64,000 nucleotides of DNA from an uncultured Actinomycetes bacterium. Lineage in GTDB: Bacteria; Actinomycetota; Thermoleophilia; RBG-16-64-13. A program made the translations under genes and the position numbers. Position 1 is the stretch's first letter; each line of letters opens with the position of its first letter. Where the stretch lies: contig CAVZIK010000006.1 in assembly GCA_963775295.1 (NCBI GenBank), positions 1,887,602 to 1,951,601 on the forward strand, read 5' to 3'. Of this stretch, positions 2,262 to 54,009 are shown piece after piece. The notes beneath the pieces were generated by a model. The model was not told the origin of the DNA. It made no database searches and saw only the letters and a program-made list of their open reading frames with translations.

Positions 2262-2617
2262 TACCAGGGGGGGTGCGCGAGCATGTCTGGTCGGTGCAAG
2301 GAGCAGGCGGGGAAGAGGATCCATCGCATCAGCGACGTGATGCGTCTCCGACGGCCAGAGCGTCTCTCGCTCATGATGCCTGTCGGTATGACGCTTGCCC
2401 GGTTGGGCGGCGTCACCAGTCTGTTCTCATCCGACACCATTTCCGGGCCGGCGCCGTCGGATCCCAGCCAATCCTGTCCCACAGCTACTTCCCGCGGACT
2501 ATCGCTGCTTTGGAAGGCTTCGTCTTGAGGTCCCGCGCCTCCTTGAGATCAAGCGGTTTTGTCGATCATGGGCTCTGCATGTAGCGCACTATTCGCACTG
2601 TGACAGGGAGGCCAAGC

Positions 2618-4093: not shown

Positions 4094-4094
4094 G

Positions 4095-5372: not shown

Positions 5373-5406
5373 CGCCTCGGGCGAGGAAGCGGTGAGGAGC
5401 CTAGCG

Positions 5407-7020: not shown

Positions 7021-7070
7021 AAGGACTGACTGGTCTTGAGGCGGGCAAAAGCTACGAAAGGGGATCAGAG

Positions 7071-7859
7071 ATGTTGTTGAAGGACAGAGTGGCTATCGTC
7101 ACCGGGTCGGCCAAAGGCATGGGCCAGGGCATCGCCCTCAAGTACGCCGACGAGGGCTGCAACGTGGCCGTCGTCGACATTGACGCAGCCATGGCTGAAG
7201 AAACGGCCGCCCAGATAGCGGCGAAAGGTGTCGAAGGACTGGCGTTGCCCTGTGACGTCACTGACATCAACCAGGTGCGGGCCGCCGTGCAGGCCGTCGC
7301 CGACAAGTTCGGCAAGATCGACATCCTGGTCAACAACGCTGGGGCCATCGCTAAACACATGAACATCGAGGACATGCCGGAAGAGGCCTGGGACAAAGTC
7401 CAAGCCCTCAACATCAAGAGCCATTTCCTCTTCTGCAAGTTCGTCGTCCCGTACATGAAGCAGGCGAGGTTCGGCAAGATCATCGGCATGTCGTCCATCG
7501 GTGCCGTTCTGCCGCCCGCCCACGAGATCAACTACAACACGGCCAAAGGCGCAGTCATGGCTTTCACCAACGACCTGGCCACCGCCTTGGCCCCATACAA
7601 CATCAACGTCAACTGCATACTGCCCGGCCCGATCAAGACCCATTTCTATGATGGCCTGTTCGGTACCGTGTCCGAGGCGGAGATGGAAGAGATATTCGCA
7701 GGCATCGGCAGAAAGACGCCGCTACAGCGGATGGGCACTTCGGAGGATATAGCCGGGGCCGCGCTGTTCCTAGCCTCGGAGCTATCGTCCTACATCACCG
7801 GTCATCCCCTGTACGTGACCGGCGGTCTGCCGTTGCAACCCACCGGACCGGCTCACTAG
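7071..7859 (+). CDS. Short-chain dehydrogenase/reductase (SDR) family oxidoreductase
   Basis: Has the TGSAKGMG Rossmann motif, NNAG, and the S…Y…K catalytic triad pattern. A GGGGA RBS precedes the ATG at 7071. Confidence 0.85.
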   Translation: MLLKDRVAIVTGSAKGMGQGIALKYADEGCNVAVVDIDAAMAEETAAQIAAKGVEGLALPCDVTDINQVRAAVQAVADKFGKIDILVNNAGAIAKHMNIEDMPEEAWDKVQALNIKSHFLFCKFVVPYMKQARFGKIIGMSSIGAVLPPAHEINYNTAKGAVMAFTNDLATALAPYNINVNCILPGPIKTHFYDGLFGTVSEAEMEEIFAGIGRKTPLQRMGTSEDIAGAALFLASELSSYITGHPLYVTGGLPLQPTGPAH

Positions 7860-7861
7860 TC

Positions 7862-9259: not shown

Positions 9260-9307
9260 TTTTCGGCACGAGCAGCACAACTGGACAGAGAGGGGGGTCT
9301 TCGTCGG

Positions 9308-15956: not shown

Positions 15957-18900
15957 CTATCCCACCTTCTTCGGAATAGCCGTGGTCCCGGCTCCAGGCG
16001 CCCTGCGGGCGCGGCGCCGAGCCAGTACCACTTCCAGATCCAGCACCTCCTCGGCTACGATGGCCAACCCCCGTTTGTGGTTGTTCTGCAGCCTCCCCCT
16101 GACCAGGAAGTAACTCGCCCGAGCGACCACCGGCGCGATCTTGGCCAGCTTGCTCTCAAAGCAGACGCACTCGAAGAGGCCGTAGGCGTCCTCTAAGGTC
16201 AGAAACATCGTCCTTTTTCCCGAGCGCATCCAGGGATTCTGGGCCCGCTCGTAGACACCGGCCACAGATACCGGCACCTCGTCTCCCATAGCGGGGAGTT
16301 CGTAGCTCATGCGTACACCCATCGACCTCAACTCTTCCTCATAGAGCTCCAACGGGTGAGCGCTCACGGTGAGTCCCATGAGTTCGAGCTCGGAGCGGAC
16401 CTTGTCCTCGAGACTCCACTGGCGTTCCAGCCCGGCGCGGCTGGGCGGGGAAAAAAACGCCCGCAGTTGGCCGCGCCTCTGTCCGGACGACCCGGCCAGC
16501 GCCTCCAAACGATCGTGCAGAAGGGGTAGACGCCAGAGCAGTTCGGTGCGGTCGGGTTCCAGCGAGTCGAAGGCACCCACCCGGATGAGGTTCTCGGCCA
16601 CAGGGTAGTCGATGCGGGTACGGAGGTAGAAGTCCTCGAAGCTGGTGAAGGGGCCGTGGCGGCGCTCCTTCTCGATGCGGTCGAGGGAGCGCTCGCCCAT
16701 CTGCTTGAGGTAGGAGAAACCCACCCGTAGGGCCCGGCCGGCATCCGGGGCGATGCCGCAACTGGGTGCGAGGCAGGCTCCGGGCTCCACGCCGCCGCGG
16801 GCGCGGGGCGCGCGGGGGAGAAGAAGGTCGCCGGGAAGCAGCGGCGCTTCGCGCGGTGGCACGGGGGCGCCGGCCCATCTCTGCTCCGGCGCCGCTCGCA
16901 GGGCCTCGGCATAGGCCAGCTCGCCTTCCTGCTCGGCCCCCAACTCGGCCAGGTCGGACTCGGTGAGGCCCCAGTTGCGCTCGGCGTTCCAGACCTGGGC
17001 GAAGGGGTCGTAGGGGCCTGCGGCCCCACCGGTGTGTGTCGCCGTCTCATCGGCCTGCGCCTCACTACCAGGCAGGCCTCCCGCGGCTCCCGCTCCCAGC
17101 AGGCCCGGCTCACTCGAGACCTCCGGCGGCGTGTCGCCCTCCACCGTGAACCCGCGCCCCGACAGGTTGATGTCCATAGACCTCACCTCCAGACCAAAGC
17201 GGCGGGCGTCGTTCAGTACCGTCCGCGGGGTGTAGAAGCCCATGGGGTAGTTGTTCAGCACGGCGCACAGGAACTCGGCCGGGTAGTAGGCCTTGAGGTA
17301 GGCGGTGGCGTAGCTGATGACGGCGAAACACACCGAGTGGCTCTTGTTGAAGCCATAGGCGGCGAAGCCCTCCAGTTGGCGGAAGACCTCCCTGGCGGCG
17401 TTCTCCGGGACTCCCCGCTCGACGGCGCGGCTGATGAAGGTCTCGCCGATCTTGGCCATCTCCTCCCGGCTGCGGTCGCGGGTCATGGCCCGGCGAAGGG
17501 AGTCGGCGTCGGCCAGGTCGAACCCGGCCACCAGTTGCGCCACCCGCAGCACCTGCTCTTGGTAGAGGATGACGCCGTAGGTGTCGCCCAGGGCTTCGGC
17601 CATAGCGGGGTGGGGAAGGACGACAGGCTCGATGCCCCAGCGCCGGTCGATGAAGGGACCGATCATCTCGGCCTCCAGTGGACCGGGGCGGTAGAGGGCG
17701 ATGGCGGCGATGATGTCGTCGAAATCCCGCTCCTGCAGGCGGCTGGCCAGGTTGCGCTGCCCGGCGGATTCCAGTTGGAACAGCCCGATAGAACCTCCGT
17801 TGCTGATGATCTCGTACGCGGCGGGGTCGTCGGGCGGCAGCTCGTAGGGCCGGATCCGTCTCCCCGTCCGCTGCCTGATGATATGTACGCACTCCGACAC
17901 GGCGGAATGGGTCCTTAGTCCGAGGATGTCCATCTTGACCAGGCCCAGGGCGGCAACGTCGTCCTTGTTGAACTGCAGGACCACCACCCCTTTGGCCGCC
18001 CATTGGAGGGGCGCGTAAAAAGGGATCTCTCTATCGGCGATGACGAACCCCCCCAGGTGAGTTCCTAGGTGCATGGGGAACGAGTCCAACCGCTCCACCA
18101 AATCGAGGAAGCGCCCCCACCGGGACTCGTCCTGCAGCGGGGAATCCTTCAACTCGGGCCAAGCGCCGCCCAGGTACTCGCGCATGCGGGCGGCGTCGCC
18201 ATGCCGAGGGACGTGTTTGGCCAGGGCGTTGATCTCCGTGGGGGCGAACCCCAGGGCTTCGGCCACGACCCGCACCGCCGAACGCGGAGACATGGTGTTC
18301 ACGTTGGCAACCACGGCTACGTTCTCCGATCCGAAGGTCTTGTAGATGTGGTCTATCACCTCATCCCGTCGGGAAGAGCAGAAATCGACGTCGATGTCGG
18401 GCATCTCTCGACGGTTGGGATTGAGGAACCGCTCGAACAGCAGGTTGTGGCGGATGGGTTCCGACGCGGTGATGTCGAGCGCGTGACACACGATGGAGTT
18501 GCCGGCGCTGCCCCTCCCTGAGCAGGCGATCCCTTGGGTCCGCGCCCATCGGACGATGTCGTGCACCACCAAGAAATAATGGGCGAACTCCATCTGCTGG
18601 ATCATGCAGAGCTCCTTCTCCAGAAGCTCGACGGCTCGCGGCGGCACCGGCTTGTATTTGCGGGGGACGCCGCGAAAGCACCGCTTGGCGAGAAGTGAGT
18701 ACGCCGTCTCGCCGACAGGGACGTCGACCTTGGGAAAGTGGTAGGTGTCCAACTCCAAGTCGACGGTGCAGCGCTGGGCGATATGCCACGCAGCATCGAG
18801 GGGGGAAGGATCTGCTGATGCAGCCATACCCGGGTTGCGCTTCGCCGGGGCTCCAGAGCCAACGGTCACACGCGAGGTGAGTAACGTCCCGGAAAGTCCC

Positions 18901-20639
18901 GGACTAGGTGTCCTATCCTCGCCCCTGGATGATGCAATTGCTGTTGCATTATAGCCATTATGCAATACAGGAGGTCGACAGGCATCCGTGAAGGCCGACA
19001 CCACCTCCACCGCCCCCCGCACTCGGTCTCTCTCTCGCTCTCCTGGCAAACCCGATTCCCCCTCCAATAATGCAAGTTCTGTTGCAATGCAATAAGTATG
19101 CATACCAACAGCCTGGTCAACGGGTGTCACCAGAGAGAGCAAAGCCTCCGCCTCAAGCTTCAGTTGAACTTTAGACTTCAGACAACGTGCGCCAGGGACG
19201 ACGTCTGGGTAGCCGGAGAGTGGTTTATCGTGACCGGCGGCGCGGCATATCAGGTGGATGGCGCGATCGGATGCCCCAGCATAATGGGCATTACAAGTCA
19301 GTACGGTGGGCAGGCGGCACTCCGCGGCCAGGTGGGTGAGGTCGAGGCAGTAGGTGAGGCAAGAGAGGCGCCAGGGCCGACCGTCGTGGTGGAACCCTAC
19401 ATCATAGTCTGAGGGATTGAGACGCTGAGGTTGACCCTCGGGAAGGTCAGGACGACCGACGTGAGAACGGGGTTTGGGAGGACGGACTGGGACAAACGTC
19501 CGCGTTGACTCGGATATTGCTGCAGACTTTGTTGCAATGCAATGTGATTGCATTTGGGCAGATGGAGGTTCGGCTGGGCGAACACCGGCGCGGGTAGGCG
19601 CGGGGTCGGCGATCAGTGCCGGGGTTGCGGACGTTGCAGTGTGCTCCACCCCGATGGTGTCCGGGGCCGGCGTAGCCCGGTGCCGAAGTCGTCCGCCCTC
19701 TGCGCGGATCTTTTCGTAAACGGGAGACCCATACTGGCCGGCGTGAGCCTCTTGGTGGGGTTCGTACCCGAAATACTGTAGTTCGACGTAAAGGTGACCA
19801 GGGCCGAAGATATCGCGCAGGTGGAGGAGGACGGCGCCGGCATCCCGGGTGCGGCCGAGGTCTGTGAGGTAGCCCAACTCTCCGTGGCGGCATCCGGTGA
19901 GGCAGATGAGACCGTTGGCATGAACGCGCAACGAGTCCACGGTGACGGTGGGCGGATGCTCCCGTTCGGGATCGGCCAGGTGTGCGGCAGAGATGATGCG
20001 GCAAAGATTGGCATAGCCCTCTCGGGTTTCGGCGAGCAGGACAAGATGGTGCGGATCATGGGGGGAGACGCCGCTTGTTGCGGCAAGGGCGTCGGACGGC
20101 GAGGGTGAATGTTCGACCTGAGGGAGCAGCGAGTCCACCCGGACCTCGGCTCCGAAAATCGGCTTGATACCGCGCTTGCTGCAGGCCTTGGCGAAACGTA
20201 CCGCGCCGTAGAGGCCGTCGTGATCTGTAAGGGCCAAGGCCGGCTGTCCCAACTCGGCCGTGCGGGACACCAACTCTTCGATGCGGCTGCCGCCGTCGAG
20301 GAACGAGAAGTTGGAGTGGACGTGCAGGTGGACAAACGGGGAAGCGCCGGTCGCTGTGTCTGCGTCGAAATCGACGGCATCGCAGGTGACGGGCAACTCG
20401 TGCAGCTTGGGCGCCCGGGTGTAGCCGAACTTGTGGACGGCGCCGTGGGCGGTAGGTCCCGGTCCGCCGATCTGGGACTTGGGACCGGGATCCGCCGGCC
20501 CTTTGGCCCAGGCCTTTTTGGGGGCGGCGTTACCGAGTTGCCGCGCATAGTCCTGACTTGGCGGGATTCTTTGCACCGGGAACCGGCTCGACTGACTGTC
20601 GGAAGGACGGCCATCGTGTGCGGTATCGCTCGCTGTCAT
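15957..20639 (-). CDS. dnaE2: Error-prone DNA polymerase DnaE2 (ImuC-like Pol III alpha homologue) with three long low-complexity insertions
   Basis: PHP domain (HLHVHSNFSFLDGG…LALTDHDGLYG), polymerase core and a C-terminal OB fold. No tau-binding C-terminal extension. 1560 aa, against ~1050-1100 aa typical. Tandem LexA boxes lie upstream. Confidence 0.85.
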   Translation of the reverse strand: MTASDTAHDGRPSDSQSSRFPVQRIPPSQDYARQLGNAAPKKAWAKGPADPGPKSQIGGPGPTAHGAVHKFGYTRAPKLHELPVTCDAVDFDADTATGASPFVHLHVHSNFSFLDGGSRIEELVSRTAELGQPALALTDHDGLYGAVRFAKACSKRGIKPIFGAEVRVDSLLPQVEHSPSPSDALAATSGVSPHDPHHLVLLAETREGYANLCRIISAAHLADPEREHPPTVTVDSLRVHANGLICLTGCRHGELGYLTDLGRTRDAGAVLLHLRDIFGPGHLYVELQYFGYEPHQEAHAGQYGSPVYEKIRAEGGRLRHRATPAPDTIGVEHTATSATPALIADPAPTRAGVRPAEPPSAQMQSHCIATKSAAISESTRTFVPVRPPKPRSHVGRPDLPEGQPQRLNPSDYDVGFHHDGRPWRLSCLTYCLDLTHLAAECRLPTVLTCNAHYAGASDRAIHLICRAAGHDKPLSGYPDVVPGARCLKSKVQLKLEAEALLSLVTPVDQAVGMHTYCIATELALLEGESGLPGERERDRVRGAVEVVSAFTDACRPPVLHNGYNATAIASSRGEDRTPSPGLSGTLLTSRVTVGSGAPAKRNPGMAASADPSPLDAAWHIAQRCTVDLELDTYHFPKVDVPVGETAYSLLAKRCFRGVPRKYKPVPPRAVELLEKELCMIQQMEFAHYFLVVHDIVRWARTQGIACSGRGSAGNSIVCHALDITASEPIRHNLLFERFLNPNRREMPDIDVDFCSSRRDEVIDHIYKTFGSENVAVVANVNTMSPRSAVRVVAEALGFAPTEINALAKHVPRHGDAARMREYLGGAWPELKDSPLQDESRWGRFLDLVERLDSFPMHLGTHLGGFVIADREIPFYAPLQWAAKGVVVLQFNKDDVAALGLVKMDILGLRTHSAVSECVHIIRQRTGRRIRPYELPPDDPAAYEIISNGGSIGLFQLESAGQRNLASRLQERDFDDIIAAIALYRPGPLEAEMIGPFIDRRWGIEPVVLPHPAMAEALGDTYGVILYQEQVLRVAQLVAGFDLADADSLRRAMTRDRSREEMAKIGETFISRAVERGVPENAAREVFRQLEGFAAYGFNKSHSVCFAVISYATAYLKAYYPAEFLCAVLNNYPMGFYTPRTVLNDARRFGLEVRSMDINLSGRGFTVEGDTPPEVSSEPGLLGAGAAGGLPGSEAQADETATHTGGAAGPYDPFAQVWNAERNWGLTESDLAELGAEQEGELAYAEALRAAPEQRWAGAPVPPREAPLLPGDLLLPRAPRARGGVEPGACLAPSCGIAPDAGRALRVGFSYLKQMGERSLDRIEKERRHGPFTSFEDFYLRTRIDYPVAENLIRVGAFDSLEPDRTELLWRLPLLHDRLEALAGSSGQRRGQLRAFFSPPSRAGLERQWSLEDKVRSELELMGLTVSAHPLELYEEELRSMGVRMSYELPAMGDEVPVSVAGVYERAQNPWMRSGKRTMFLTLEDAYGLFECVCFESKLAKIAPVVARASYFLVRGRLQNNHKRGLAIVAEEVLDLEVVLARRRARRAPGAGTTAIPKKVG

Positions 20640-38846: not shown

Positions 38847-39095
38847 CTTCGCTCAAGGATCGATTGAGATGGCCGTCACCCGACCACTGCTTGCCCGGCA
38901 ATCTTAGCATCGGCGGGCCCTCGGGCGGGAACCGAGTGCTCCAAGCCAAGCCGACCGATATGAGCCAAGGCGCTGGGGTGGACCTTTCCTGCCCCGGCCC
39001 GTCGCTTAATGCGGCCTCATGACGCTTACCTCGCCGAAGCTTTACTGGAAGTATGGGTTGCTGTACGCTGGGTATTGTCACGGGAGGGAGGCCTC

Positions 39096-39344
39096 ATGAC
39101 CGAGTATGGCCCGAACACAAGGCCCTTTAACGTAAGATTGCCACTCTGGGCGGTCGACTACATCGACCGTCGTTCGGAGGAACGCGGCGTCACCAAGACT
39201 CAGATTGTCGTCGATGCGCTCTCGAGCCTTCGGGCCCAGGAGCTCCAGAATCTGATGCGGGAGGGATACGAGGAGATGCGCGTACTCGATCGGCAGATGG
39301 CGCAAGAAGCGCTGCCGGCCTCAGTTGGGAGCCTCACCGAATGA
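39096..39344 (+). CDS. Ribbon-helix-helix antitoxin (MazE/CopG-like)
   Basis: An 82-aa protein (…FNVRLPLWAVDYIDRRSEERGVTKTQIVVDAL…). GGGAGG RBS. Its stop overlaps the start of the MazF-like gene. Confidence 0.65.
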   Translation: MTEYGPNTRPFNVRLPLWAVDYIDRRSEERGVTKTQIVVDALSSLRAQELQNLMREGYEEMRVLDRQMAQEALPASVGSLTE

Positions 39345-39721
39345 GCGGCGGGGCGGGAGTGCGCCGCGGATTCATCTATCTGGTTGATCTCGAACCCGTG
39401 GCTGGCTCGGGCGAAAGCAAGCCACGCCCGGCTCTGGTGGTTCAGAACGATCTTGGGAACCTCTCCGGAGCAACGACGATAGTGGTCGCTCTGAGTTCCC
39501 ACATTCCCTCTCGGCTGTATCCCTTCCATGTGGCCTTGCCGGCGGAGGTTCTGGGCCGCGCCGGCGTCGTAATGTGCGAGCAGATACGCACCGTCGAGAT
39601 GGAGAGGTTGGACCGACAACCGCTGGCCCAATGCCCGTCCGATGTCATGAAACAGGTGGAGCAGGCCCTCCGTCATTCCCTGGGTCTGTCCGTGGAGACC
39701 GCCTCGATCGCCTCACTGTGA
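39341..39721 (+). CDS. MazF/PemK-family endoribonuclease toxin
   Basis: RGFIYLVDLEP…KPRPALVVQND…TIVVALSSH motifs typical of PemK/MazF. Confidence 0.8.
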   Translation: MSGGAGVRRGFIYLVDLEPVAGSGESKPRPALVVQNDLGNLSGATTIVVALSSHIPSRLYPFHVALPAEVLGRAGVVMCEQIRTVEMERLDRQPLAQCPSDVMKQVEQALRHSLGLSVETASIASL

Positions 39722-40783: not shown

Positions 40784-41326
40784 CTAGGCGAAGTAACGCC
40801 CCAGAAGGCCTTTGAAAGCCTTTCCGTGTCGCGCTTCATCGCGGGCCATCTCGTGGACGGCATCGTGGATTGCGTCATATCCGAGTTCTTTTGCGAGCTT
40901 GGCCAGTTCGAACTTGCCCTCGGTGGCGCCGTATTCAGCCTCGACCCGCGCCTGCAAGTTGACCTTGCTCTCGGGAGAAACAAGCTCGCCCAGCATTTCG
41001 CAGAAGCGGGAAGCATGGTCGGCTTCCTCGTAGGCGATGCGCTTGTAGGCTTCCGCAACCTCAGGATAACCCTCGCGGTCGGCGGCCCTGGACATAGCCA
41101 GATACATGCCCACTTCGCTGCACTCTCCATTGAAATTGTTGACGAGACCCTCGATGACTCGTGGATCTATACCCTTTGCTATGCCGATGACGTGCTCGGC
41201 CGCCCAAGTCATTTCGGCTTCAGCTCCGACGACGAATTTGTCTCCGGGAGCCTTGCACCCTGGGCAGCTGTCCGGCGGAGCGTCGCCTTCGTAGACGTAA
41301 CCACACACGCTGCACCTGTATTTCAT
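40784..41326 (-). CDS. Reverse rubrerythrin (N-terminal rubredoxin-like domain followed by a diiron ferritin-like domain)
   Basis: [10 protein letters not shown]…CPGCKA at the N-terminus, then ExxH diiron motifs. An AGGAGG RBS precedes the ATG at 41326. The ORF track starts 16 codons upstream. Confidence 0.85.
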
Positions 41327-41530
41327 TCTGATTCCTCCTAACCACGGATAACGAGCGCGATCGACAGACAAGCACCGGACACGGCCCAGCGCCCCTTTGA
41401 CCTTTCCGCAATAATTCCACGTTCGGACACGATCAAAACATCAAGCTGGCAAATTTTATGAGCCGGGTCGAGTCATGGCAAGATCGTATAGAATTCTCTC
41501 TGAGAAGGGGTGACTGACTGGGAGGATCAC

Positions 41531-42019
41531 TTGTCGCACGTGGAGTTGAACACTCCCGCGCCCGATTTCGAACTGCCCGACTTCGAGGGGAAGGTCTTCC
41601 GTCTTTCCCAATTGCGCGGCACCAGGAACGTACTCTTGGTCTTCAACCGCGGGTTCACGTGACCCTACTGCCGCGCGCACATGGCGCAGTTGCGCCAAGA
41701 CTTTCCGGAGTTTGATAAGCGGGATACCGCGGTTGTGGTTGTAGGGCCTGAGGACGCAACCGCGTTCGCCAGGTATTGGCGCGCAAACCTGCTGCCTTTC
41801 GTTGGGTTGCCGGATCACGAGCACACGGTGCTCAAGCAGTATGGGCAGGAGATAAAGCTGTTCAAGTTCGGGCGGATGCCCGCTCAGGTCTTGGTGGACA
41901 AGGCGGGCCGCGCTCGATTCGTCCACTACGGACACGATATGACCGATATCCCTTCCACGGCAGAGATGCTCAAATTGATCGACGGCTTGGAGCGCTCCAG
42001 AGCCCAGACGCCCGGGTAG
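41531..42019 (+). CDS. Thioredoxin-fold redoxin (TlpA/AhpC-TSA/Prx-like). It has an in-frame TGA at 41660-41662 exactly at the first position of the CxxC active site (…FNRGFT-U-PYCRAH…). This is a candidate selenoprotein, otherwise a pseudogene.
   Basis: A frame that is open, with the single TGA at codon 44, runs from TTG 41531 (GGGAGG RBS 5 nt upstream) to 42019. Its N-terminus is APDFELPDFEGKVFRLSQL…VLLVFNRGFT*PYCRAHM…. Only the C-terminal 112 aa appear in the ORF track. A stem-loop lies 20 nt after the TGA. Confidence 0.5.
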
Positions 42020-42035
42020 GGAACTGTAAAAGCCC

Positions 42036-42797
42036 CTACTCGACGAACCCCTCAATGACGTAGGTCCAGCCGGCCTTCTTGTCCCGGTGCAGTTTGATGT
42101 AACCCTGCTTCTCGGCGTCGACCAGCAGGTTGCTGAAGCTGCGGTATCCGTAAGCGGACTCGTTGAACGACGGCTTCTTCCGCTGCATCGTGTCCTTGAC
42201 CATGGAGGCGAAGATGGGGTCCTTGTTCTCCCGGATGAGGGCCGCGATGGACTCCAATAGCAGATCGAAGATCTCCTTCTTTTCCGGCGGGATGTCTGTG
42301 GCTTCCGGACCCGCGGGAGCCGGTGTGGGCTGTTTCTCCAAGTCCTCGTAGAAGATGAACTCGTCGCAGTTGCCGGCCAGCAGATCGGAGGTGGACTCCT
42401 TCATCCCGATCCCGATTACGTGCTTGCCGTTTTCCTTGAGCTTGGACACCAGGGGAGAGAAGTCCGAGTCGCCGGACACGATCACGAACGTATCGATGTG
42501 CTCTTTAGACCAGGCCAAGTCCATTGCGTCCACCGCCAAGCGTATGTCGGCCGAGTTCTTGCCTGTCATGGAACGTCGCGGAATCTCTATAAGTTCGATT
42601 GCATTCTCATGCAGGGGGCGGGTGTACTGCTTGTATTCCCCCCAATCGGCGTAGGCCTTCTTGACGATGACCTTGCCCTTCTCTACCAGGCGTTCAAGGA
42701 TCTTGTGGATGTCGAATTCGCCGCGGCGATGCTTGAAACCGATAGCCAGGTTTTCGAAGTCGATGAAGACTGCAAGGGTGCGTTCGGTCTCGGCCAT
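42036..42797 (-). CDS. NYN-domain (LabA-like) protein with a C-terminal OST-HTH/LOTUS domain
   Basis: LAVFIDFENL…ADIRLAVDAMDL…TFVIVSGDSDFSPLV is the NYN signature. AAGGAG RBS before the second ATG. GC is lower than in the neighbouring genes. Confidence 0.8.
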   Translation of the reverse strand: MAETERTLAVFIDFENLAIGFKHRRGEFDIHKILERLVEKGKVIVKKAYADWGEYKQYTRPLHENAIELIEIPRRSMTGKNSADIRLAVDAMDLAWSKEHIDTFVIVSGDSDFSPLVSKLKENGKHVIGIGMKESTSDLLAGNCDEFIFYEDLEKQPTPAPAGPEATDIPPEKKEIFDLLLESIAALIRENKDPIFASMVKDTMQRKKPSFNESAYGYRSFSNLLVDAEKQGYIKLHRDKKAGWTYVIEGFVE

Positions 42798-43142
42798 GTG
42801 TTTCTGATGCTCCTTCCCGAGCAATGCGGCGGACGTGCGCTTCTGTGGATGAATTCTTGCACGATTTCCGTATTCCTGGTACCCGCGGGCGTCGACCCGC
42901 AGTTCCCTCGATCTCGAACAGTCTATGTTTACCCCCTCCAGACGTCTGGGTAACAGGGGGCAGAACGCCGCGTCTGGGGCCGTCGCGTTCTGGTCATCAG
43001 AGCTTTGCGTGAGCGATGATCCCGGTGACGGTTATCAAACCAAAGCCGGGTAGGACTCGCAAATCGGGAGGGGCCATCAAAGGTCGCCACTCCCGAACGT
43101 GTCGGGGTGTGCTTGGTCGCCAATGGGACAAGGGGTGGTCGC

Positions 43143-44705
43143 ATGGCTCAGTCTGAGAAAGACCCGACCGCTGGTGGTGTCCTCCAGGACGAACGCGGTC
43201 GACGGGGGTTCCTTCAGCGGCATTTCGGATCTGAGTATGAGCGGGTAACCGGCTTCGGGGAGATCGTGTACGAGCACGATGACCGTGCTGCCAGAGTCTG
43301 GCTGGCGAGTAGCGTCTTTTGGTTCGTTGTGGTCACCACTTTCGGCATCATCATCGCAATGGAGCTCGCCTTTCCTGAGACGTTCGCCGGGGTCTCCTGG
43401 TTGGTATTCAGCCGCGCCCGTCCAGTCCACGTAGAAGGCGTGGTGTACGCCTGGCTCACCATGATGTATTGGGGAGCTATCACGTACTTCACCCCACGGC
43501 TCTTGGGCACGCGCAGTCTCTGGAGCGAGAAGCTCGGCGTCTATCTGGCGTACCTGTATAATGTCGTCATCGCCGCCGGTTTCTTCGGGATTCTCACCGG
43601 AGCCTCGCAGGGCCGCGAGTGGGCTGAATTTCCATGGCCTGTCGACGTCGCCATCATCTGTATCTTTATCGCCCTCACTTTCAACACCCTCATGACGGTA
43701 AGCATCCGCCGAGTGAGGCCGCTTTATGTGAGTATGTGGTGGGCGATAGCCGCCCCTATCTGGGTCACCGCTTCAATATTCATTGAGAATGTCGTGTGGC
43801 GCCCGGGCGCAATTTGGAGCAACCCCTCGGGCGCCCTTGAGAATGGAATCCACGACGCAATGATCAACTGGTGGGGCAACCACAACCTGTTCGGATTGTG
43901 GCTCACGCCTGTGCTGGTAGCGGTTGTCTATTACTTCATTCCTCGGATCACAAACACGCCCCTGTACAGCCATACACTGTCCTTGGTTTCGTTCTGGGGG
44001 CTGATCTTCGTCTACGCCGCGGTAGGTGACCACCATATATTGCAGAGCCCCACGCCGGGGTGGTTGAAGACCATTTCTTCGGTCAACAGTGTGGCGATCC
44101 TCATCCCAGTGTTCGCCTTCTTCACCAACGTCTTTCTCACCATGCGAGGGCAGTGGAACCGCTTCTTTACGAACTTACCCCTGAGATTCGTGTTGACCGG
44201 CTTCATCTTCTACATCTTGGTCAACCTACAGGGGTCTTTGCAGGCCGTGCAACCCTTCAACATCTACATACACTTCACGTATTTCATCATCGGACACTCC
44301 CATCTGGCTCTGCTTGGAGGGTTCACGATCCTGGGGATGGGGGTCCTCTACTACGTCATCCCACATATATTCAACAAGCCTGTCTATTCCACGGCGCTTG
44401 CGGAGTGGCAGTTCTGGCTGGTGACGTTCGGTTTTCTGCTCTTCTTCGCAGCCGTCACCATCGCCGGTTTCATTCAGGGACAGAGTTGGTTGGCGGGCGA
44501 GCCCGAGGTCAACGTGCTGCCGGCCTTGAGGTTGTGGAACATCGTCCGGGCCCTCGCCGGAGGGATGATCTACCTCTCAGCTTGGGTTCAGATCTACAAC
44601 CTTGTCCGAACCTACGCGAGCGATACCAGCGCCAAGCGCCGCCGTCACGCCGTCGAGGACAACGAGTCCTCTCTGCTGGACACCCAACCCGACATCGTCG
44701 CCTGA
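43143..44705 (+). CDS. ccoN: C-family heme-copper oxidase catalytic subunit (cbb3-type CcoN, or NorB-like)
   Basis: 12+ TM helices. His ligands in WGNHNLFGLW, …GDHHILQ… (CuB HH) and …FIIGHSHLALLGG…. It is followed by a c-type cytochrome gene. Confidence 0.8.
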   Translation: MAQSEKDPTAGGVLQDERGRRGFLQRHFGSEYERVTGFGEIVYEHDDRAARVWLASSVFWFVVVTTFGIIIAMELAFPETFAGVSWLVFSRARPVHVEGVVYAWLTMMYWGAITYFTPRLLGTRSLWSEKLGVYLAYLYNVVIAAGFFGILTGASQGREWAEFPWPVDVAIICIFIALTFNTLMTVSIRRVRPLYVSMWWAIAAPIWVTASIFIENVVWRPGAIWSNPSGALENGIHDAMINWWGNHNLFGLWLTPVLVAVVYYFIPRITNTPLYSHTLSLVSFWGLIFVYAAVGDHHILQSPTPGWLKTISSVNSVAILIPVFAFFTNVFLTMRGQWNRFFTNLPLRFVLTGFIFYILVNLQGSLQAVQPFNIYIHFTYFIIGHSHLALLGGFTILGMGVLYYVIPHIFNKPVYSTALAEWQFWLVTFGFLLFFAAVTIAGFIQGQSWLAGEPEVNVLPALRLWNIVRALAGGMIYLSAWVQIYNLVRTYASDTSAKRRRHAVEDNESSLLDTQPDIVA

Positions 44706-44720
44706 AGGAGGGAGTGAGAC

Positions 44721-46169
44721 ATGGCCGACATGGGCAAGTGGCTGCCGACCTATCAGAGCTTCCCACAGGGTTGGGCTCCCCATCCGCGGAAGCGAATGCT
44801 GATGACACCACTCCTGGTCTTCCTGGGAGGCATCTTCGCTTTCGCGATACCCACACTGGTCGCGGCATTTTTTCAGCTGATGTTCTTCAACGCGCCGGTA
44901 TCCAACAACTGGTCTCCGCTTACGGCCTCGGCGATCGAGGGCAGGAAGGTGTTTGTCGCCAACGGTTGCATCTATTGTCACAGCGGGTACACGAGGCCGC
45001 AGGACGTCCGCACCGGCCTCATGTACCTTTACCCACGCATCTCGCTGCCCGGCGACTTCGTCAGTAGCGACTCCAGCCCAAATGTGTTCGGTTCTGCGCG
45101 CATCGGCCCGGACCTGAGCCAAGAAAGCGGGTTCCATCCTGACGACTGGGAGAGAGCACACTTCAGCGATCCACGGTACGTCGAACCCCTATCGATCATG
45201 CCCCGTTTCATCTTCCTCAGTGACAAGCAGGTGGACGATCTCTCCACCTATCTTCAGCTACGGGCCGGCAAGGACGGACTGGTGCGGTATGCGGGACAAC
45301 TCTATGCCAAGCAGATGCAGAAGGTGGCATTGGGCATCGAGGATCCGCCCACAGGGTTCCAAGGCGCGAAGCTGACGCTCACCGACGTGATGAACTTGGC
45401 CGCGAATGGTTCGAACCCACCGCAGGGGACGGTGGATGGCCTGGATTGGCCCGACCCCATCAACCTCAATATCGTGGACCGGTCGTACTGGCTGGCCGAC
45501 AACCCGCTTCCTGTGACCAAAGACAACCTGCTTCGGGGTCGTCTCATCTTTAGGGAACGTTGCATAGGGTGCCATGGGGACAAAGGTGACGCCGTCAGCG
45601 AGGCGGCCAAGTATCTTCGACCGATGCCCATCGACTTCACCGGACCCGATGACGCGTCGGGAGGCAACGATACGGCGCCGGGAGTCCTGTACTACCGCGT
45701 GCTTCGCGGTATAGAGGGGACCGCCATGGAGAACTTCGGATCTCGGTTGCGGGTCGATGACATATGGCGGGTGGTCCTGTTCCTCAAGACGATACCCAGC
45801 GGCGGCCTCGACCCCTCCAAGGTGCCGACGACAGACATGTATATCCAGTGGAAACCGCCGGATGCCCTTTTGCAGTACGTAGCGGCGCATCCGATAGATC
45901 AGAATAAGAGGTATGTCGAAACGGCCTCGACCACCGATCCATGGATGCTGGAAGCCCAGAGGTTCTTGGCCGGTCTCAATGATTCCGACACCATGGACCT
46001 CCCGGGGTTCGGTACCGTGTCACTCGCCACAGCTCGAGACGGAATCAAGTCCATCTACGACCAGTTACTCGATCAGGGTTGGAACGACTACTTCGCTCGC
46101 GGCGGATCGCCCAGCGTTCCCGCGACTCAGAAGGACATCGCGCCCACTCTGGATGCCGAGCTACGCTAG
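44721..46169 (+). CDS. Fused CcoO-like monoheme subunit plus a second monoheme cytochrome c domain (CcoP-like), membrane-anchored
   Basis: N-terminal TM. CIYCHSGY plus GPDL…W.RAHF.DPR…SIMP (CcoO/FixO signature). A second CxxCH (CIGCHGDKGD) lies in the C-terminal half. Confidence 0.8.
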   Translation: MADMGKWLPTYQSFPQGWAPHPRKRMLMTPLLVFLGGIFAFAIPTLVAAFFQLMFFNAPVSNNWSPLTASAIEGRKVFVANGCIYCHSGYTRPQDVRTGLMYLYPRISLPGDFVSSDSSPNVFGSARIGPDLSQESGFHPDDWERAHFSDPRYVEPLSIMPRFIFLSDKQVDDLSTYLQLRAGKDGLVRYAGQLYAKQMQKVALGIEDPPTGFQGAKLTLTDVMNLAANGSNPPQGTVDGLDWPDPINLNIVDRSYWLADNPLPVTKDNLLRGRLIFRERCIGCHGDKGDAVSEAAKYLRPMPIDFTGPDDASGGNDTAPGVLYYRVLRGIEGTAMENFGSRLRVDDIWRVVLFLKTIPSGGLDPSKVPTTDMYIQWKPPDALLQYVAAHPIDQNKRYVETASTTDPWMLEAQRFLAGLNDSDTMDLPGFGTVSLATARDGIKSIYDQLLDQGWNDYFARGGSPSVPATQKDIAPTLDAELR

Positions 46170-48661: not shown

Positions 48662-49903
48662 CTAAAGCAATTCCAAGAAGCTCTCCATCGCCTGCACGGA
48701 TTTCTCCTGCTGAGGCCCGCCGCGTCCCAGCGCATCTCCGTCGATGGCTAGGAAGGGAATGCCGGCTTCCATGAACGCATTTCTAATGACGGGCACCGAG
48801 CCCAGGCCGTGGCGGCAACCCCAATGATTGAAGTGCACGGCCCCGTCGACTCCTAGTTGCTTGGCCAGCGCGACGTTGAGGCGCGCGCGGCGGGCAGAGC
48901 TGCCCCACAGGGCGTGGTCTGTGAGGCGCTTTGCCAGTCCAGGGAAGGGATCATCGGGATCGACCGTCTCCATGTGCATCTGACCCATCTCCTCGAAAAT
49001 GACCACCGCATCCTGTTTCTCCAGCATCGCGAAGAGTTCGGTGTCGTGATGGGGAACAGTGTGCAGCCAGAGCAGGCGTTTGAGCTTGCGGCCTTGATCG
49101 AGAACTGGGGCCATCAAGTCCTTGCGCCCCCGTTCGGTCAGAAGCCGCTCGAAGTCCTTCGCCCCGGCCTCCGTGCCCCACAGGAGTTGCCCCAGGAACA
49201 CCGTCGCGAACGTGCGGCGCCCGTTCATTTCCAGACGGCAGTCCAGACGCTTGGTCATGATCTGTCCCCACGCGGCGGAAGCCCGGTTTGAGAGCTGCAC
49301 GGTCTTTTTGAGGTTTGGCCTGCGGCCGGTCCAGCGACCGATATCCTCGTGAAGCAGTTGTATCTGATCGGCCACATCCGCCACTACGTCCGGAGCGGCC
49401 TCGCCCTCGTCGGGAGGGAGGGGAACCCGAATCTCACGGAACGGCACCTCGTAGCGCACGGCGAGCATCTCAAGGAGACACTCTTTCCCCAAACAGAGGG
49501 GAGTCGTGCCCAGGCACATGGTCGGACGGGGCAGCATGTCGTTCTCGACCGCCGCCAGCGCGATGCGGTGGTAGCTGCAGACATCGCGGGCGAGTGGCAT
49601 CCGTGCGGCGGCCGACTCCACCGCCTCGCGCAGGTCACTTCCCGTCAGCGTGGCCGAGCCGATTTCCGGGATCATCGGAGTGATGCCGTACGAGGTCAGG
49701 ATCTCGGTGGGGAAGAGGTACGACACCCACGGCACGATGGCCCCAGTCTTAAACAGCTCCAGCGACGCCCCCAGGGCATGCAGCTCGAGATAGCCTCGGG
49801 CGGAGCGGGACTGTATCGCCTTCCACCGGGTTTGGGCAAGAAACGCGGCGCGAATGAGCGAAGCACTGAACGAGTCACCGGTTACGTCCGCCATTCCGGG
49901 CAT
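48662..49903 (-). CDS. 2-hydroxyacyl-CoA dehydratase / benzoyl-CoA reductase BcrB-C-type component-D family protein (HgdB-like)
   Basis: Conserved Cys pattern (…DVCSYHRIALAA…CLGTTPLCLGKEC…), 413 aa, paired with a second family member. Confidence 0.7.
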   Translation of the reverse strand: MPGMADVTGDSFSASLIRAAFLAQTRWKAIQSRSARGYLELHALGASLELFKTGAIVPWVSYLFPTEILTSYGITPMIPEIGSATLTGSDLREAVESAAARMPLARDVCSYHRIALAAVENDMLPRPTMCLGTTPLCLGKECLLEMLAVRYEVPFREIRVPLPPDEGEAAPDVVADVADQIQLLHEDIGRWTGRRPNLKKTVQLSNRASAAWGQIMTKRLDCRLEMNGRRTFATVFLGQLLWGTEAGAKDFERLLTERGRKDLMAPVLDQGRKLKRLLWLHTVPHHDTELFAMLEKQDAVVIFEEMGQMHMETVDPDDPFPGLAKRLTDHALWGSSARRARLNVALAKQLGVDGAVHFNHWGCRHGLGSVPVIRNAFMEAGIPFLAIDGDALGRGGPQQEKSVQAMESFLELL

Positions 49904-49908
49904 GTGGG

Positions 49909-50892
49909 CTAGTCCTCCTCGAAAAGCAGGTCGTCGACGTTGGGATCGTCGAGATCGTTGCCAAGCAAGTCGTCATCGAGCAGTTGGGCCTCGAGGAACG
50001 CTTCCACCCTGGTACGGAGCGGCCCACCGACTTCAAACGGGAAGCCGACCTCGATTTCCAAAAATGGAAGCCCACGCTCCTCGGCCAACTGGGCGACCAG
50101 AAGGGCGTCGTATGCTCCCGGGTCGCAGAAGCTCTGCCTGGCGTAGATAACCGACGTCGGGTGGGCTTCGTCCAGGCGGCCGGCGAGATACTCTCGCCGT
50201 TCACTCGTGGATCGGCGCGGGCACATCCCGATGTCGAGCAGTCGAACGGCAAGCGTTTCAAATGTAGTGGGGTCTTGGTCGCTCAGGGCAAGCTGAATCG
50301 CGGTCTCGTCGGCCAAACGTTTCCAGCGGTCCGGTGAGGTGCAGGATTCCAATGCGGCGATGTGCACGCCGAGGTCCTTGACCATGCGTAGAAGTGAGGC
50401 GTCACTGAGGGGACCGGCCACAATGAAGGTGCCATCCGGTCGAGGGGAAGAAGGGTAATCCACCGTGGGAGGCTCTCCGGCTGCGCAAAGGTCCTCCGCG
50501 CCGTCCGGCAGGCGGCCCTTCAGCCAGGTGGCCAAAGAGCGAAGATCAGCGGCAAGCGTGCTGACTGCCCCCGGCACCGAAGATCGGGGCATGGCCAGCA
50601 CGAATACCTTTCCCGGATAGGTGGCAGCCATGAGGTCGCCCATTCGGCGCATGGCATCGCAGCCCCCGGGAACTATCAGGCAGTCCTCCTCCGCAGCATC
50701 CGAGAGCAGGACGTCCGCGGCCAAAACCAGTTGGGTCACGTAGGGGCAGGTCATGGGGTGGATGCTGAGAGCCTCACGTCGGGCGGGTGCGGCGACGTCC
50801 TCGAGATGGTTACCCAGCCATCGTGGGGAGTAGCCGGACTCGACTGCGAGCCCGACGGGGAAGAGATTGCAGGTGTAATAAACGCTCGGCAT
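49909..50892 (-). CDS. 2-hydroxyacyl-CoA dehydratase component-D family protein (HgdA-like partner subunit)
   Basis: 327 aa with a Cys pattern typical of HGD-D partners. It is separated by 5 nt from the previous family member. Confidence 0.65.
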   Translation of the reverse strand: MPSVYYTCNLFPVGLAVESGYSPRWLGNHLEDVAAPARREALSIHPMTCPYVTQLVLAADVLLSDAAEEDCLIVPGGCDAMRRMGDLMAATYPGKVFVLAMPRSSVPGAVSTLAADLRSLATWLKGRLPDGAEDLCAAGEPPTVDYPSSPRPDGTFIVAGPLSDASLLRMVKDLGVHIAALESCTSPDRWKRLADETAIQLALSDQDPTTFETLAVRLLDIGMCPRRSTSERREYLAGRLDEAHPTSVIYARQSFCDPGAYDALLVAQLAEERGLPFLEIEVGFPFEVGGPLRTRVEAFLEAQLLDDDLLGNDLDDPNVDDLLFEED

Positions 50893-51032
50893 CGAAAGGG
50901 AGATTAGGGCCCTTGGAGCGAGAAGGCAAGGGCCGCTGGGGTTGTGGCAGCGTTCGCTTGGCGTTTGCAGTCATGCTATAAAGGGGCAGAATTGTCGACG
51001 GAGATGCCAACGTTCTCTGAAGGCGGGGGGAT

Positions 51033-51731
51033 ATGAACAAGGTTTTCCCGAGTGCCGAAGCCGCGATCTTCGATATCGAAGACGGGGCATCGATCATGAG
51101 CGGGGGGTTCGGCTTGTGCGGAAACCCCGAGAATCTCATTCGGGCGGTCCACGACAAGGGGGTCAAGGACCTCACCATCATGAGCAACAACTGCGGTACC
51201 GACAAGTTCGGGCTGGGAATACTGCTCAACAATGGACAGGTCCGCAAGATGGTCTCCACCTACGTGGGCGAGAACAAGACTTTCGAGCACCTGTTCCTAA
51301 GCGGCTTACTCGAGGTGGAGTTGGTCCCGCAGGGCACGTTTGCAGAGAGAATACGGGCAGGGGGCGCGGGCATTCCGGCCTTCTACGTCCGGGCCGCGGT
51401 CGGGACCCCATTGGCAGAGGGCAAGGAAGTCCGTGTCTTTGACAGCAAGGAATATCTTATGGAGACCGGCCTGCACGCGGACTTCGCGATCATCAATGCA
51501 TGGAAGGGCGACAAGTACGGCAATCTGGTCTATCGAAAGACCGCGCGCAACTTCAATCCGGTCATGGCGACCGCGGCCACGATCACCATCGCAGAGGTAG
51601 AGCATCTGGTGGAACCGGGGGAGATCGAACCCGACCAGGTCCACACTCCCGCCATCTACGTCAACCGCGTGGTTCAGGGTGAGCACTACGAGAAGTGGAT
51701 CGAGAAACACACTGTCAGGCCGCGTCCGTAG
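51033..51731 (+). CDS. 3-oxoacid / glutaconate-type CoA-transferase subunit A
   Basis: SGGFGLCGNPENLI … GNLVYRKTARNFNP motifs of the family I CoA-transferase alpha subunit. Confidence 0.9.
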   Translation: MNKVFPSAEAAIFDIEDGASIMSGGFGLCGNPENLIRAVHDKGVKDLTIMSNNCGTDKFGLGILLNNGQVRKMVSTYVGENKTFEHLFLSGLLEVELVPQGTFAERIRAGGAGIPAFYVRAAVGTPLAEGKEVRVFDSKEYLMETGLHADFAIINAWKGDKYGNLVYRKTARNFNPVMATAATITIAEVEHLVEPGEIEPDQVHTPAIYVNRVVQGEHYEKWIEKHTVRPRP

Positions 51732-51773
51732 ACGTCGTCGAAACAGCCGAATGGTACTTGTCGGGAGGCGACA

Positions 51774-52430
51774 ATGGGGATTACCAGGGAGCAGCAGGCA
51801 AGGCGGATCGCGGCCGAATTCAAAGACGGCTATTACATCAACCTGGGCATAGGCATGCCCACTATCGTCAGCAACTACATCCCCGAAGACATCATGGTCT
51901 TCATCCACTCCGAGAACGGCATCCTGGGGTGCGGGCCGTATCCGTTCGAGGGTGACGAGGACCCGGATCTCATCAACGCCGGCAAAGAAACGGTGACCGC
52001 CCTGCCGGGCGCGAGCTATTTTTCAAACGCCGACTCGTTCGCCATGGTCCGTGGGGGCCATGTGGATGCCACCGTGCTCGGCGCGCTGGAAGTCTCGGCG
52101 GCCGGAGATCTCGCTAACTGGATGGTGCCGGGGAAGATGGTGAAGGGCATGGGCGGGGCCGGCGACATGGTCGTTGGCGCCAAGCGGGTAATAATCATGA
52201 TGGATCACTGCACCAAAGAGGGAAAGCCGAAAATACTGAACCAGTGCTCCCTGCCTCTCACCGGCAAGAAAGTGGTCGATCTCATAGTGACCGACCTCGC
52301 CGTCATAGAGATCCGCCCCGCGGGGATGGTGCTGCTCGAAGCCGCCCCCGGACTGAGCGCTCAGGACGTCCAGGATGTGACCGAGCCCAGCCTGGTGGTT
52401 GCCCGGAAGTTCAAGCCGATTGAGGTCTAG
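51774..52430 (+). CDS. CoA-transferase subunit B
   Basis: INLGIGMPT … SENG (catalytic Glu) … GMGGAGDMV motifs. Confidence 0.9.
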
Positions 52431-52612
52431 AACGTGCGCTGTGGCGGCCGCCCGTTTGGCGGCCGCCACAGCCTGACCAGCGGCTATCAACCCCCATCGG
52501 CGCGGCGTCACCTCATACCAAATACCCGCACTTGGGCGGGTCGGAAGCGGTATGATGTTGTCTACTGTCATCAATTGGGCCCCTCCCGGGGTCCGGTGTA
52601 TAGGAGAGGAAG

Positions 52613-53314
52613 ATGCCGAAAAACAAGGTTGTAGGACTCCAGGAGGCTATATCCCATATTGAGTCCGGGATGAGCATCGCCATTGGGGGGTTCCTCAGCC
52701 AGGGCGACCCGCTGACCTTGATGCACGGTCTGAAGGATTCGGACGTCAAGGACTTGGTCATTTACTCGTGTACGGCCGGCTTTCGCGACCGGGGCATCGT
52801 GGAACTGGTCAAGGCCGGCAAGGTGCGCAAGGTCGTGACCAGCCACATCGGCACCACGCCCGATGTGGTAAAGGCTTACCATGCGGGTGAGATTGAGGTG
52901 GAACTCATTCCCCAGGGGACGCTAGCCGAGCAGTTGCGCGCAGGCGGCGCTGGCCTCGGCGGTTTTCTCACTCATACCGGGGTGGGAACGATTGTCGAGG
53001 AGGGGAAGCAGAAGATCGAGCTTAACGGCATGGTTTATCTGCTGGAACAGGCCATCCGCACCGATGTGGCCTTTGTCCGGGCTCACGACGGCGACACTTG
53101 GGGCAATCTTAGGTATCGGGGCACGGCGCGTAACTACAACCCCGAGTGTGCCACCTGTGCCGATTACGTGATCGCGGAAGTCGAGTATCTGTACGACCCG
53201 GGCGAAGTCGCGCCTGAGAGTGTGCACACCCCCGGTCTGTACGTCGACGCGGTGGTCCGGGCGGATCTCACCTACCGCGGTTCTTCGGTATTCGTCGGCC
53301 AGTGTTCATTGTGA
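52613..53314 (+). CDS. Second CoA-transferase subunit A (paralogue)
   Basis: AIGGFLSQGDPLTLM…GNLRYRGTARNYNP. Confidence 0.9.
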   Translation: MPKNKVVGLQEAISHIESGMSIAIGGFLSQGDPLTLMHGLKDSDVKDLVIYSCTAGFRDRGIVELVKAGKVRKVVTSHIGTTPDVVKAYHAGEIEVELIPQGTLAEQLRAGGAGLGGFLTHTGVGTIVEEGKQKIELNGMVYLLEQAIRTDVAFVRAHDGDTWGNLRYRGTARNYNPECATCADYVIAEVEYLYDPGEVAPESVHTPGLYVDAVVRADLTYRGSSVFVGQCSL

Positions 53315-54009
53315 CAAGGGGCGTTAAGGTGACAGATATTAAACAAATCATTGCGCAGCGGGCCGCGTTGGAGTTGAAGGACGGCCTTGTCATCAACCTA
53401 GGTATCGGAGTTCCCACGTTCGTCGCCAACTACATACCTGATGGGGTCGACGTGGTGATCCACTCCGAGAACGGAGCAGTGGGGGTTGGACCGGCGCCGG
53501 AGAAGTATTGTGACGACCCGGATCGTGCCAACGCCGGAGGCGCCCCGATTACGCTGGGCGCGGGTGGCAGCTACTTCGATTCGGCCACATCGTTCTCCAT
53601 GATCCGGGGTGGCCACGTGGACATGACCTTTCTCGGAACGTTGCAGGTGGATGGCGAAGGCAATATTGCCAGCTACGAAATCCCCGGCAAGTTGGTGGCC
53701 GGCATGGGTGGGGCCATGGATCTTCTGGCGGGCGCGAAGATCGTGAATGTGGTCACCGAGCATTGCTCGAAAGATGGCAAGACCAAACTGGTGAAACTCT
53801 GCACGTTCCCATTGACGGGTGCCGCGGAGGCAGATGTCATCATCACCGAGCGCGCCGTGTTCCGTCGCTTCCCCCATCACAAAGGCTTTGTGCTCGAGGA
53901 AATCGCGCGCGGCTTCACTCTCGAGGATATCGCCGCCTGCACTGAGATGGACTACACGGTCTCACAAACCGTCAAGATCGACGCGTTCGGGCCGCGGGCT
54001 CCGAGATGA
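53302..54009 (+). CDS. Second CoA-transferase subunit B (paralogue). The start may be GTG 53329.
   Basis: INLGIGVPT…SENGAVGVGP…GMGGAMDLL. Confidence 0.85.
   Translation: MFIVTRGVKVTDIKQIIAQRAALELKDGLVINLGIGVPTFVANYIPDGVDVVIHSENGAVGVGPAPEKYCDDPDRANAGGAPITLGAGGSYFDSATSFSMIRGGHVDMTFLGTLQVDGEGNIASYEIPGKLVAGMGGAMDLLAGAKIVNVVTEHCSKDGKTKLVKLCTFPLTGAAEADVIITERAVFRRFPHHKGFVLEEIARGFTLEDIAACTEMDYTVSQTVKIDAFGPRAPR

Follow-up and report, generated by a model that had tools for sequence, protein, structure and literature searches.

A probable selenocysteine codon in the redox motif of a Prx-like redoxin from an uncultured Actinomycetes bacterium

The DNA analysed here, a stretch of 64,000 nucleotides referred to as the window, carries a gene for a redoxin of the thioredoxin fold whose reading frame contains a TGA codon at the first position of the CxxC motif. 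We put the probability at roughly 0.9 that this is an intact, real selenoprotein gene in which the in-frame UGA encodes selenocysteine (Sec). The comparative evidence was decisive for this reading: the TGA is conserved, the sequence flanking it on either side is under coding selection, Cys takes its place in homologues, and a hairpin that follows the codon is constrained. An earlier note, made from the letters of the window, had proposed a UxxC candidate selenoprotein at this site, and these four lines of evidence support that proposal.

The redoxin gene and its surroundings

The features of the gene and its immediate neighbours are collected in Table 1. The frame from TTG to the stop, open but for the one TGA, and the ribosome binding site placed five nucleotides ahead of it had both been given in the earlier note, and both sets of coordinates hold in the sequence. 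The stop codon is a TAG (42017-42019) and the TGA is the sole interruption of the frame. Orthologues show N-termini of the kind M-[PSA]-[KRQ]-V-x-L-N at the aligned start. The conceptual translation reads (M)SHVELNTPAPDFELPDFEGKVFRLSQLRGTRNVLLVFNRGFT-U-PYCRAHMAQLRQDF... and has 162 residues counting the TGA. The mechanical list of ORFs shows the gene only in two parts, one of 50 aa ahead of the TGA and one of 112 aa from ATG 41681 onwards; the remark that the ORF track captures the protein only as the 112-aa part after the TGA, with Met at 41681, was borne out by this list. In the public protein collection this 112-aa fragment (P0001), from a contig of 3,560,348 bp, is the only product of the source genome.

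Table 1. Features of the redoxin gene and its neighbours in the window
Feature	Position	Strand	Basis or remark
Shine-Dalgarno-like GGGAGG	41520..41525	+	5 nt upstream of the start codon, read from the sequence
TTG start codon	41531..41533	+	Orthologues with Met at the aligned position; ribosome binding site just upstream
Full redoxin coding sequence, 162 residues, probable Sec at residue 44	41531..42019	+	Pfam matches; both halves kept in frame in 158 relatives
In-frame UGA, probably read as selenocysteine (U44)	41660..41662	+	TGA conserved; homologues that are rarer or more distant have Cys
U-P-Y-C redox motif, thioredoxin-type CxxC with probable Sec first	41660..41671	+	Alignment with 3hdc; model of P0009
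SECIS-like hairpin UGGCGC-AGUU-GCGCCA	41682..41697	+	Stem 41682-41687 pairs with 41692-41697; loop AGUU 41688-41691 (G41689, U41690)
Rubrerythrin	40784-41371	-	Divergent neighbour of the redoxin
NYN/LOTUS protein	42036-42824	-	Convergent neighbour of the redoxin
cbb3-type oxidase pair	43107-46169		Neighbour

An ORF of 199 aa on the opposite strand (41456-42055, -) spans the whole redoxin gene. Similar shadow ORFs were observed in 35 related loci, and the GC3 of the antisense ORF in the window (0.60) is lower than that of the real genes here; most likely it is not a gene. When the flanks of the redoxin gene were scanned for promoters, terminators and inverted repeats, only one promoter-like site was detected, on the minus strand and directed towards the rubrerythrin gene.

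Besides the neighbours in Table 1, a CDF transporter and a MazF module lie near the redoxin gene. The reverse-strand rubrerythrin had been taken to place the redoxin in an oxidative-stress context. The adjacency is real, but it is specific to the source genome: among 80 related loci there is no generally recurrent neighbour, the flanking genes change from clade to clade, and rubrerythrin does not belong to the recurrent ones. The oxidative-stress context is therefore a weak, genome-specific hint. Several other regions of the window were recorded in the course of annotation. The MazF/PemK toxin gene (39341-39721, +) follows, with a 4-nt overlap, a 111-aa ORF without a Pfam match, and the two (39009-39721, +) are probably a type II toxin-antitoxin pair. 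A DnaE-like ORF of 1560 aa (15957-20639, -) has two stretches without a Pfam match even at E 0.1, one of about 360 residues separating the PHP domain from the polymerase core and one of about 220 residues separating the finger domain from the HHH domain; no intein domains were detected in this ORF. The regions 125-11431, 48662-54009 and 2600-7020 hold genes for ETF alpha and beta, two CCG/Fe-S (HdrD/GlpC-like) proteins, FAD-linked oxidases, four tandem CoA-transferase subunits and two HGD-D-like dehydratase subunits, and these gene sets look like a cluster for anaerobic acyl-CoA and electron-transfer metabolism.

Conservation and decoding of the TGA codon

Relatives of the redoxin were collected in two scans of public collections. 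In the first, which covered one genome per GTDB species, at least 591 stretches encoded a relative, and in the best 80 of these the TGA was found at the aligned codon without exception (80/80), with the upstream 43 residues conserved in the same frame. The hosts of these best 80 loci belong to Actinomycetota (including Thermoleophilia and Gaiellales) and Chloroflexota (including Anaerolineae, Ardenticatenaceae and Ca. Leptofilum), together with single MAGs labelled Planctomycetaceae, Bacillota and Coriobacteriia. The second scan covered metagenomes and was seeded with the three Cys forms then known; despite these seeds, a motif scan detected TGA in 78 of the 80 loci. Over both scans the TGA occupies the exact codon in 158 relatives (80 genome and 78 metagenome loci).

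This conservation bears directly on the possibility that the window carries a pseudogene or a sequencing error, the TGA being a nonsense mutation or a miscalled TGC or TGT. The 112-aa fragment that stands for the gene in the public protein collection would fit such an account, and so would a JGI metagenome contig (L083:5850-6408) with CGA at the TGA position and a frameshift in the upstream segment, which reflects either decay of the gene or a fault in the assembly. The presence of TGA at the same codon in 158 independent assemblies effectively refutes an origin by mutation or miscalling, and the copy in the window has an intact upstream frame, a ribosome binding site and all of the family-invariant residues. 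We regard this explanation as extremely improbable.

Selection on the protein was examined in a codon alignment of 81 redoxin sequences. Upstream of the TGA, residues P10, F12, L14 and L24 are invariant (81/81), yet their codons are used almost evenly. At identical residues with four- or sixfold degenerate codons, the same-codon fraction was 0.33 upstream of the TGA and 0.37 downstream of it. The two segments that flank the UGA are thus under protein-level selection in a single frame, with synonymous sites near saturation. Since selection acts at the protein level while synonymous variation is free, the N-terminal segment must be translated in frame with the rest. An alternative is that the locus yields two separate products, a 43-residue peptide ending at the TGA and an independent 112-residue protein starting at ATG 41681, a conserved codon at which gene callers do begin. 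That ATG, however, belongs to the conserved hairpin and is not preceded by a Shine-Dalgarno sequence, and a protein starting there would miss the first beta-strands and the whole CxxC active site. Moreover, the two pieces are always adjacent and in the same frame, and together they make up one complete AhpC-TSA domain (positions 3-120 of 124). Two independent products are therefore highly improbable, and a single protein read through the UGA is the reading we retain.

The homologues show what occupies the aligned position when the codon is not TGA. In three proteins (P0009, P0037 and P0056) the Sec column is encoded by TGT, and these are true Cys forms; the Cys-form DNA loci with TGT are L081, L082 and L164. 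In many more distant representatives of 50%-identity clusters the motif reads xRGFxCPxC, with Cys at the Sec column. The alignment proposed in the earlier note as a check, that of Cys-containing homologues against the TGA column, thus places Cys where the window has TGA. The annotation of closer relatives is affected by the codon itself. Nearly all of the closest ones (72-88% identity) are represented by fragments of 105-120 aa that start just past the TGA position, and full-length relatives on short contigs show 'W' at the Sec column. One of these database proteins, P0003 (L165:376-840), has Trp at the Sec position while its DNA codon is TGA, which indicates that the W derives from gene calling with a TGA=Trp code on short contigs.

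Full-length 'W' proteins obtained in this way for relatives might be taken to mean that the UGA is read without Sec, either by a near-cognate tRNA that inserts Trp, Cys or Arg or under a variant code in which TGA is a sense codon. The content of the window could be read in the same direction. No selA, selB or selD was detected in the 64 kb by Pfam annotation of about 50 ORFs; no tRNA-Sec was detected in the window, which holds no tRNA of any kind, or in 60 related loci; and a tblastn search of related loci with an approximate E. coli SelD query gave no matches. Against decoding without Sec stand the stop codons of the window. Among 40 of its genes supported by Pfam, 14 end in TGA, 26 in TAG and none in TAA, and as TGA is an ordinary stop in 14 of them, a TGA=Trp variant code is excluded. 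The hosts, Actinomycetota and Chloroflexota, use the standard code. The codon lies at the catalytic first position of the CxxC motif, which is Cys in homologues and where Trp would abolish redox activity, and it is followed at SECIS distance by a hairpin under selection at the nucleotide level. Taken together, these observations make readthrough without Sec very unlikely and argue for selenocysteine at this position. The same count of stop codons shows a majority of TAG, which is unusual for a bacterial genome of 61% G+C. A scan of the window for further genes with an in-frame TGA gave no convincing case besides the codon at 41660.

A constrained hairpin downstream of the UGA

The hairpin UGGCGC-AGUU-GCGCCA begins 19 nt after the UGA and its loop base G41689 lies 26 nt from the UGA. 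The earlier note had pointed it out at 41682-41697, and this position holds; the hairpin is also the centroid structure of the predicted fold, at -10.8 kcal/mol. The 71-nt region around it folds no better than shuffled sequence (z = 0.35). With such a value thermodynamics alone proves nothing, and the signal of the hairpin is comparative.

At the nucleotide level the stretch ATGGCGCAGTTGCG[C/T]C, from +21 to +36 after the T of the TGA (41681-41696 in the window), is almost invariant, and the hairpin is the strongest nucleotide-level signal in the redoxin gene. Its codons are frozen: Ala is encoded by GCG in 78/80 sequences, Gln by CAG in 81/81, Leu by TTG in 81/81 and Arg by CGC in 66 and CGT in 14. 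In the remainder of these genes, 13% of Leu codons are TTG and 25% of Ala codons are GCG. The same-codon fraction in the hairpin codons is 0.88, and only C and U, the two bases able to pair with the opposing G, are permitted at the third position of the Arg codon. Base pairing was counted explicitly in 147 distinct sequences for a stem of 6 bp and a loop of 4 nt. Cells of the stem were paired in 98.4% of cases, compared with 17-67% when the partners were slid. Each of two stem pairs shows a G-U wobble in 28 sequences, and two compensatory double changes were observed. In one of them (L130) the replacements Ala to Val and Arg to His turn a C-G pair into a U-A pair and keep the pairing, and in the other (L139) the closing U-A is replaced by C-G. 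The loop is AGUU, or GGUU in two sequences, with G and U invariant at positions 2 and 3. The peptide encoded by the hairpin, M-A-Q-L-R, is variable in distant Cys forms (HMDQLQ, HMARLR, HMALLR, HLNQLR and HMIRLR). This lack of conservation in the peptide argues that the RNA, and not the protein, is what is constrained.

In the consensus computed by RNAalifold the hairpin was replaced by a weak alternative helix of 4 bp (-2.25 kcal/mol), although the hairpin reaches -9.87 kcal/mol on the same alignment. The alternative corresponds to columns 12-15 paired with 30-33 of the alignment (A4): a conserved CUGC, made up of a Phe third base and the Cys codon (41668-41671), can pair with GCAG (41686-41689), a segment that overlaps the 5' arm of the hairpin. 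This helix is either a competing structure or a quirk of the tool; we treated the preference of RNAalifold as a tool quirk and relied on the explicit pair counts.

The hairpin thus lies shortly past the UGA and carries a G in a small apical loop. We take the bSECISearch model to cover UGA-to-loop distances of 16-37 nt with G among the first two bases of the loop, and the hairpin of the window falls within this range. An Rfam scan of 41400-42100 (E up to 10) gave no match. The SECIS element of E. coli fdhF is likewise a hairpin inside the coding sequence, placed shortly behind the UGA and with G-U in its small apical loop, and the loop bases G23 and U24 are essential (PMC8659212). The G and U at loop positions 2-3 of the redoxin correspond to these bases. 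The two elements differ in geometry: the stem starts 19 nt after the UGA in the redoxin and 11 nt after it in fdhF, the loop G of the redoxin is 7 nt further from the UGA, and its stem is a perfect 6 bp without the bulged U of the E. coli element.

Among the three Cys-form DNAs examined, L081 has lost the hairpin sequence and the other two have kept it, so that they do not form a clean negative control for the hairpin; the variable peptide of the distant Cys forms was used in their place. These two loci (L082:1354-1836 and L164:928-1416), both with TGT, retain the exact hairpin sequence ATGGCGCAGTTGCGC, which may be a 'fossil' SECIS left after recent conversion of Sec to Cys.

Fold, family and likely function

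For searches with Pfam and NCBIfam models, the conceptual product was used with Cys in place of the TGA. It matched AhpC-TSA (PF00578) over profile positions 3-120 of 124 with an E-value of 4.4e-21 and a score of 75.5 bits against a cutoff of 26, and Redoxin (PF08534) with 1.8e-16. The best NCBIfam model was that of the SelL-related redox protein (NF040769), with which the redoxin has in common a Prx-like fold and a Sec-containing redox motif. Membership in that family was rejected, as the score of 72.9 bits (E 2.3e-20) is below the cutoff of 120 and only residues 9-105 align. Scores with the ResA model (38 bits against a cutoff of 170) and with the PrxQ and BCP models were also far below the cutoffs. 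With a start just 8 residues ahead of the first conserved strand, and lacking a hydrophobic leader, a signal peptide and a membrane anchor, the protein is cytoplasmic. The earlier note had described a TlpA/ResA/Prx-like architecture. Of this description the Prx-like part stands with the PF00578 match, and assignment to the extracytoplasmic TlpA/ResA/CcmG proteins was rejected on the missing hydrophobic N-terminal segment and the ResA score.

The closest solved structures by sequence are Sulfolobus Prx-like 2ywn/4g2e (E 6e-12), M. tuberculosis AhpE and Geobacter 3hdc. The WCPYC of 3hdc, a 'thioredoxin family protein', aligns exactly on U-P-Y-C, and in alignment with the TxxC of peroxiredoxins Thr falls on U44 and the peroxidatic Cys on C47. 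These residue alignments indicate that the peroxiredoxin-like scaffold carries an active site of the thioredoxin CxxC type, in which Sec takes the nucleophilic first position. The redoxin was not classed as a canonical peroxiredoxin (PxxxTxxC): its NRGFT-U-PYC has neither Pro nor Thr at the motif positions, and Sec takes the position of Thr. The structure was considered in an AlphaFold model of the Cys-form homologue P0009 (pLDDT 89, pTM 0.87), which stands in for the protein of the window. In this model residue 44 caps the N-terminus of helix 45-56 and residue 47 lies in its first turn. In a Foldseek search the model fell between ResA/TlpA-like proteins and peroxiredoxins of the BCP type (TM 0.7-0.86, identity no higher than 29%), with 3hdc, Bcp1/Bcp4 and ResA as the nearest solved structures. 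The BCP/PrxQ and AhpE proteins (2ywn/4g2e, 3drn, 3hjp and 1xvw) share the overall fold (TM 0.8-0.85) but carry PxxxTxxC, which the redoxin lacks, its active site being of the CxxC type. ResA/TlpA and 3hdc share the CxxC active site and a similar structure (TM 0.7-0.86) but are extracytoplasmic, with a membrane anchor or signal peptide that is absent from the redoxin.

These features suggest how the gene may work. The ribosome would start at TTG 41531, and SelB, bound to the hairpin through the G-U of the AGUU loop, would bring Sec-tRNA(Sec) to the UGA at 41660, so that translation would run on to the TAG ending at 42019 and give a cytoplasmic thioredoxin-fold protein of 162 residues; in a cell lacking selenium or SelB the product would be limited to a peptide of 43 residues. 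The active site, U44-P-Y-C47, would lie at the N-terminus of the first long helix of a 'Prx-like' AhpC/TSA redoxin. Judging from what is known of the family, the selenolate of U44 would attack an oxidised substrate, which may be a disulfide, a sulfenic acid or possibly a peroxide. A selenenylsulfide with C47 would then form, and thioredoxin or a similar thiol reductant would reduce it again. Motif and fold together suggest a role in thiol-disulfide exchange or in the reduction of peroxide or sulfenate via this selenenylsulfide.

Selenoproteins of this kind have been described as Prx-like thiol:disulfide oxidoreductases (PF00578, UxxC/UxxU) by Kryukov & Gladyshev 2004 and as 'Prx-like 1' in the GOS study (PMC1088965, PMC2398784, PMC9312934, PMC13188914). 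They have the same Pfam domain as the redoxin, a thioredoxin-like UxxC with Sec first in place of the peroxiredoxin TxxU, and they too were predicted from Sec/Cys pairs and a downstream hairpin (PMC1088965, PMC2398784, PMC9312934, PMC13188914). With 75.5 bits against the PF00578 gathering score of 26, and with UxxC instead of TxxU, the redoxin fits this group by the field's criterion of the same domain and the same Sec motif. It is a real but ordinary member of a kind of selenoprotein known since 2004-2005. A search with the profile of the redoxin family gave 47 cluster representatives with E-values of 1e-30 or lower and 1,721 with E-values of 1e-10 or lower. Two of the proteins encountered have unusual architectures: P0123 (309 aa) is a Cys form of the redoxin fused to a peroxiredoxin domain of the BCP/PrxQ type, and P0136 (1430 aa), which looks eukaryotic, contains five stretches matching the redoxin family profile.

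What may be new is the clade itself, for which no NCBIfam model scores above its cutoff and which is almost exclusively Sec-containing, present in hundreds of species of Actinomycetota and Chloroflexota, and equipped with an unusually invariant SECIS. Compared with the Prx-like UxxC family represented by WP_010940744.1 of Geobacter, the clade of the window has most of its hosts in Actinomycetota and Chloroflexota, and nearly all of its members contain Sec. Whether it amounts to a distinct, uncurated subfamily with the signature FNRGFxU-P-[FY]-C...HMAQLRQD, marked by near-obligate Sec, Cys forms being rare, by its presence in these hundreds of species and by an ultra-conserved SECIS of 16 nt with a spacing of 19 nt and no bulged U, is a suggestion we make tentatively and with slightly more doubt than confidence. 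If it were true, it would imply either that SelB recognition follows a shared mode in Actinomycetota and Chloroflexota or that gene and SECIS have spread together by horizontal transfer, and the clade would provide a simple marker for the use of Sec in lineages of soil and sediment.

The known workings of selenoproteins are unchanged by this gene, and its main value lies in the correction of annotation. In public protein sets the redoxin is truncated to a fragment without the active site, and in other datasets a false Trp is written at the Sec position. Taken together, the family motif and the invariant hairpin ATGGCGCAGTTGCG[C/T]C make a simple rule by which hundreds of records would be corrected and which would flag Sec-decoding capacity in metagenome-assembled genomes of Actinomycetota and Chloroflexota. 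Read as a selenoprotein, which we hold to be highly probable, the redoxin adds a widespread and almost exclusively Sec-containing protein to lineages not usually regarded as rich in selenoproteins.
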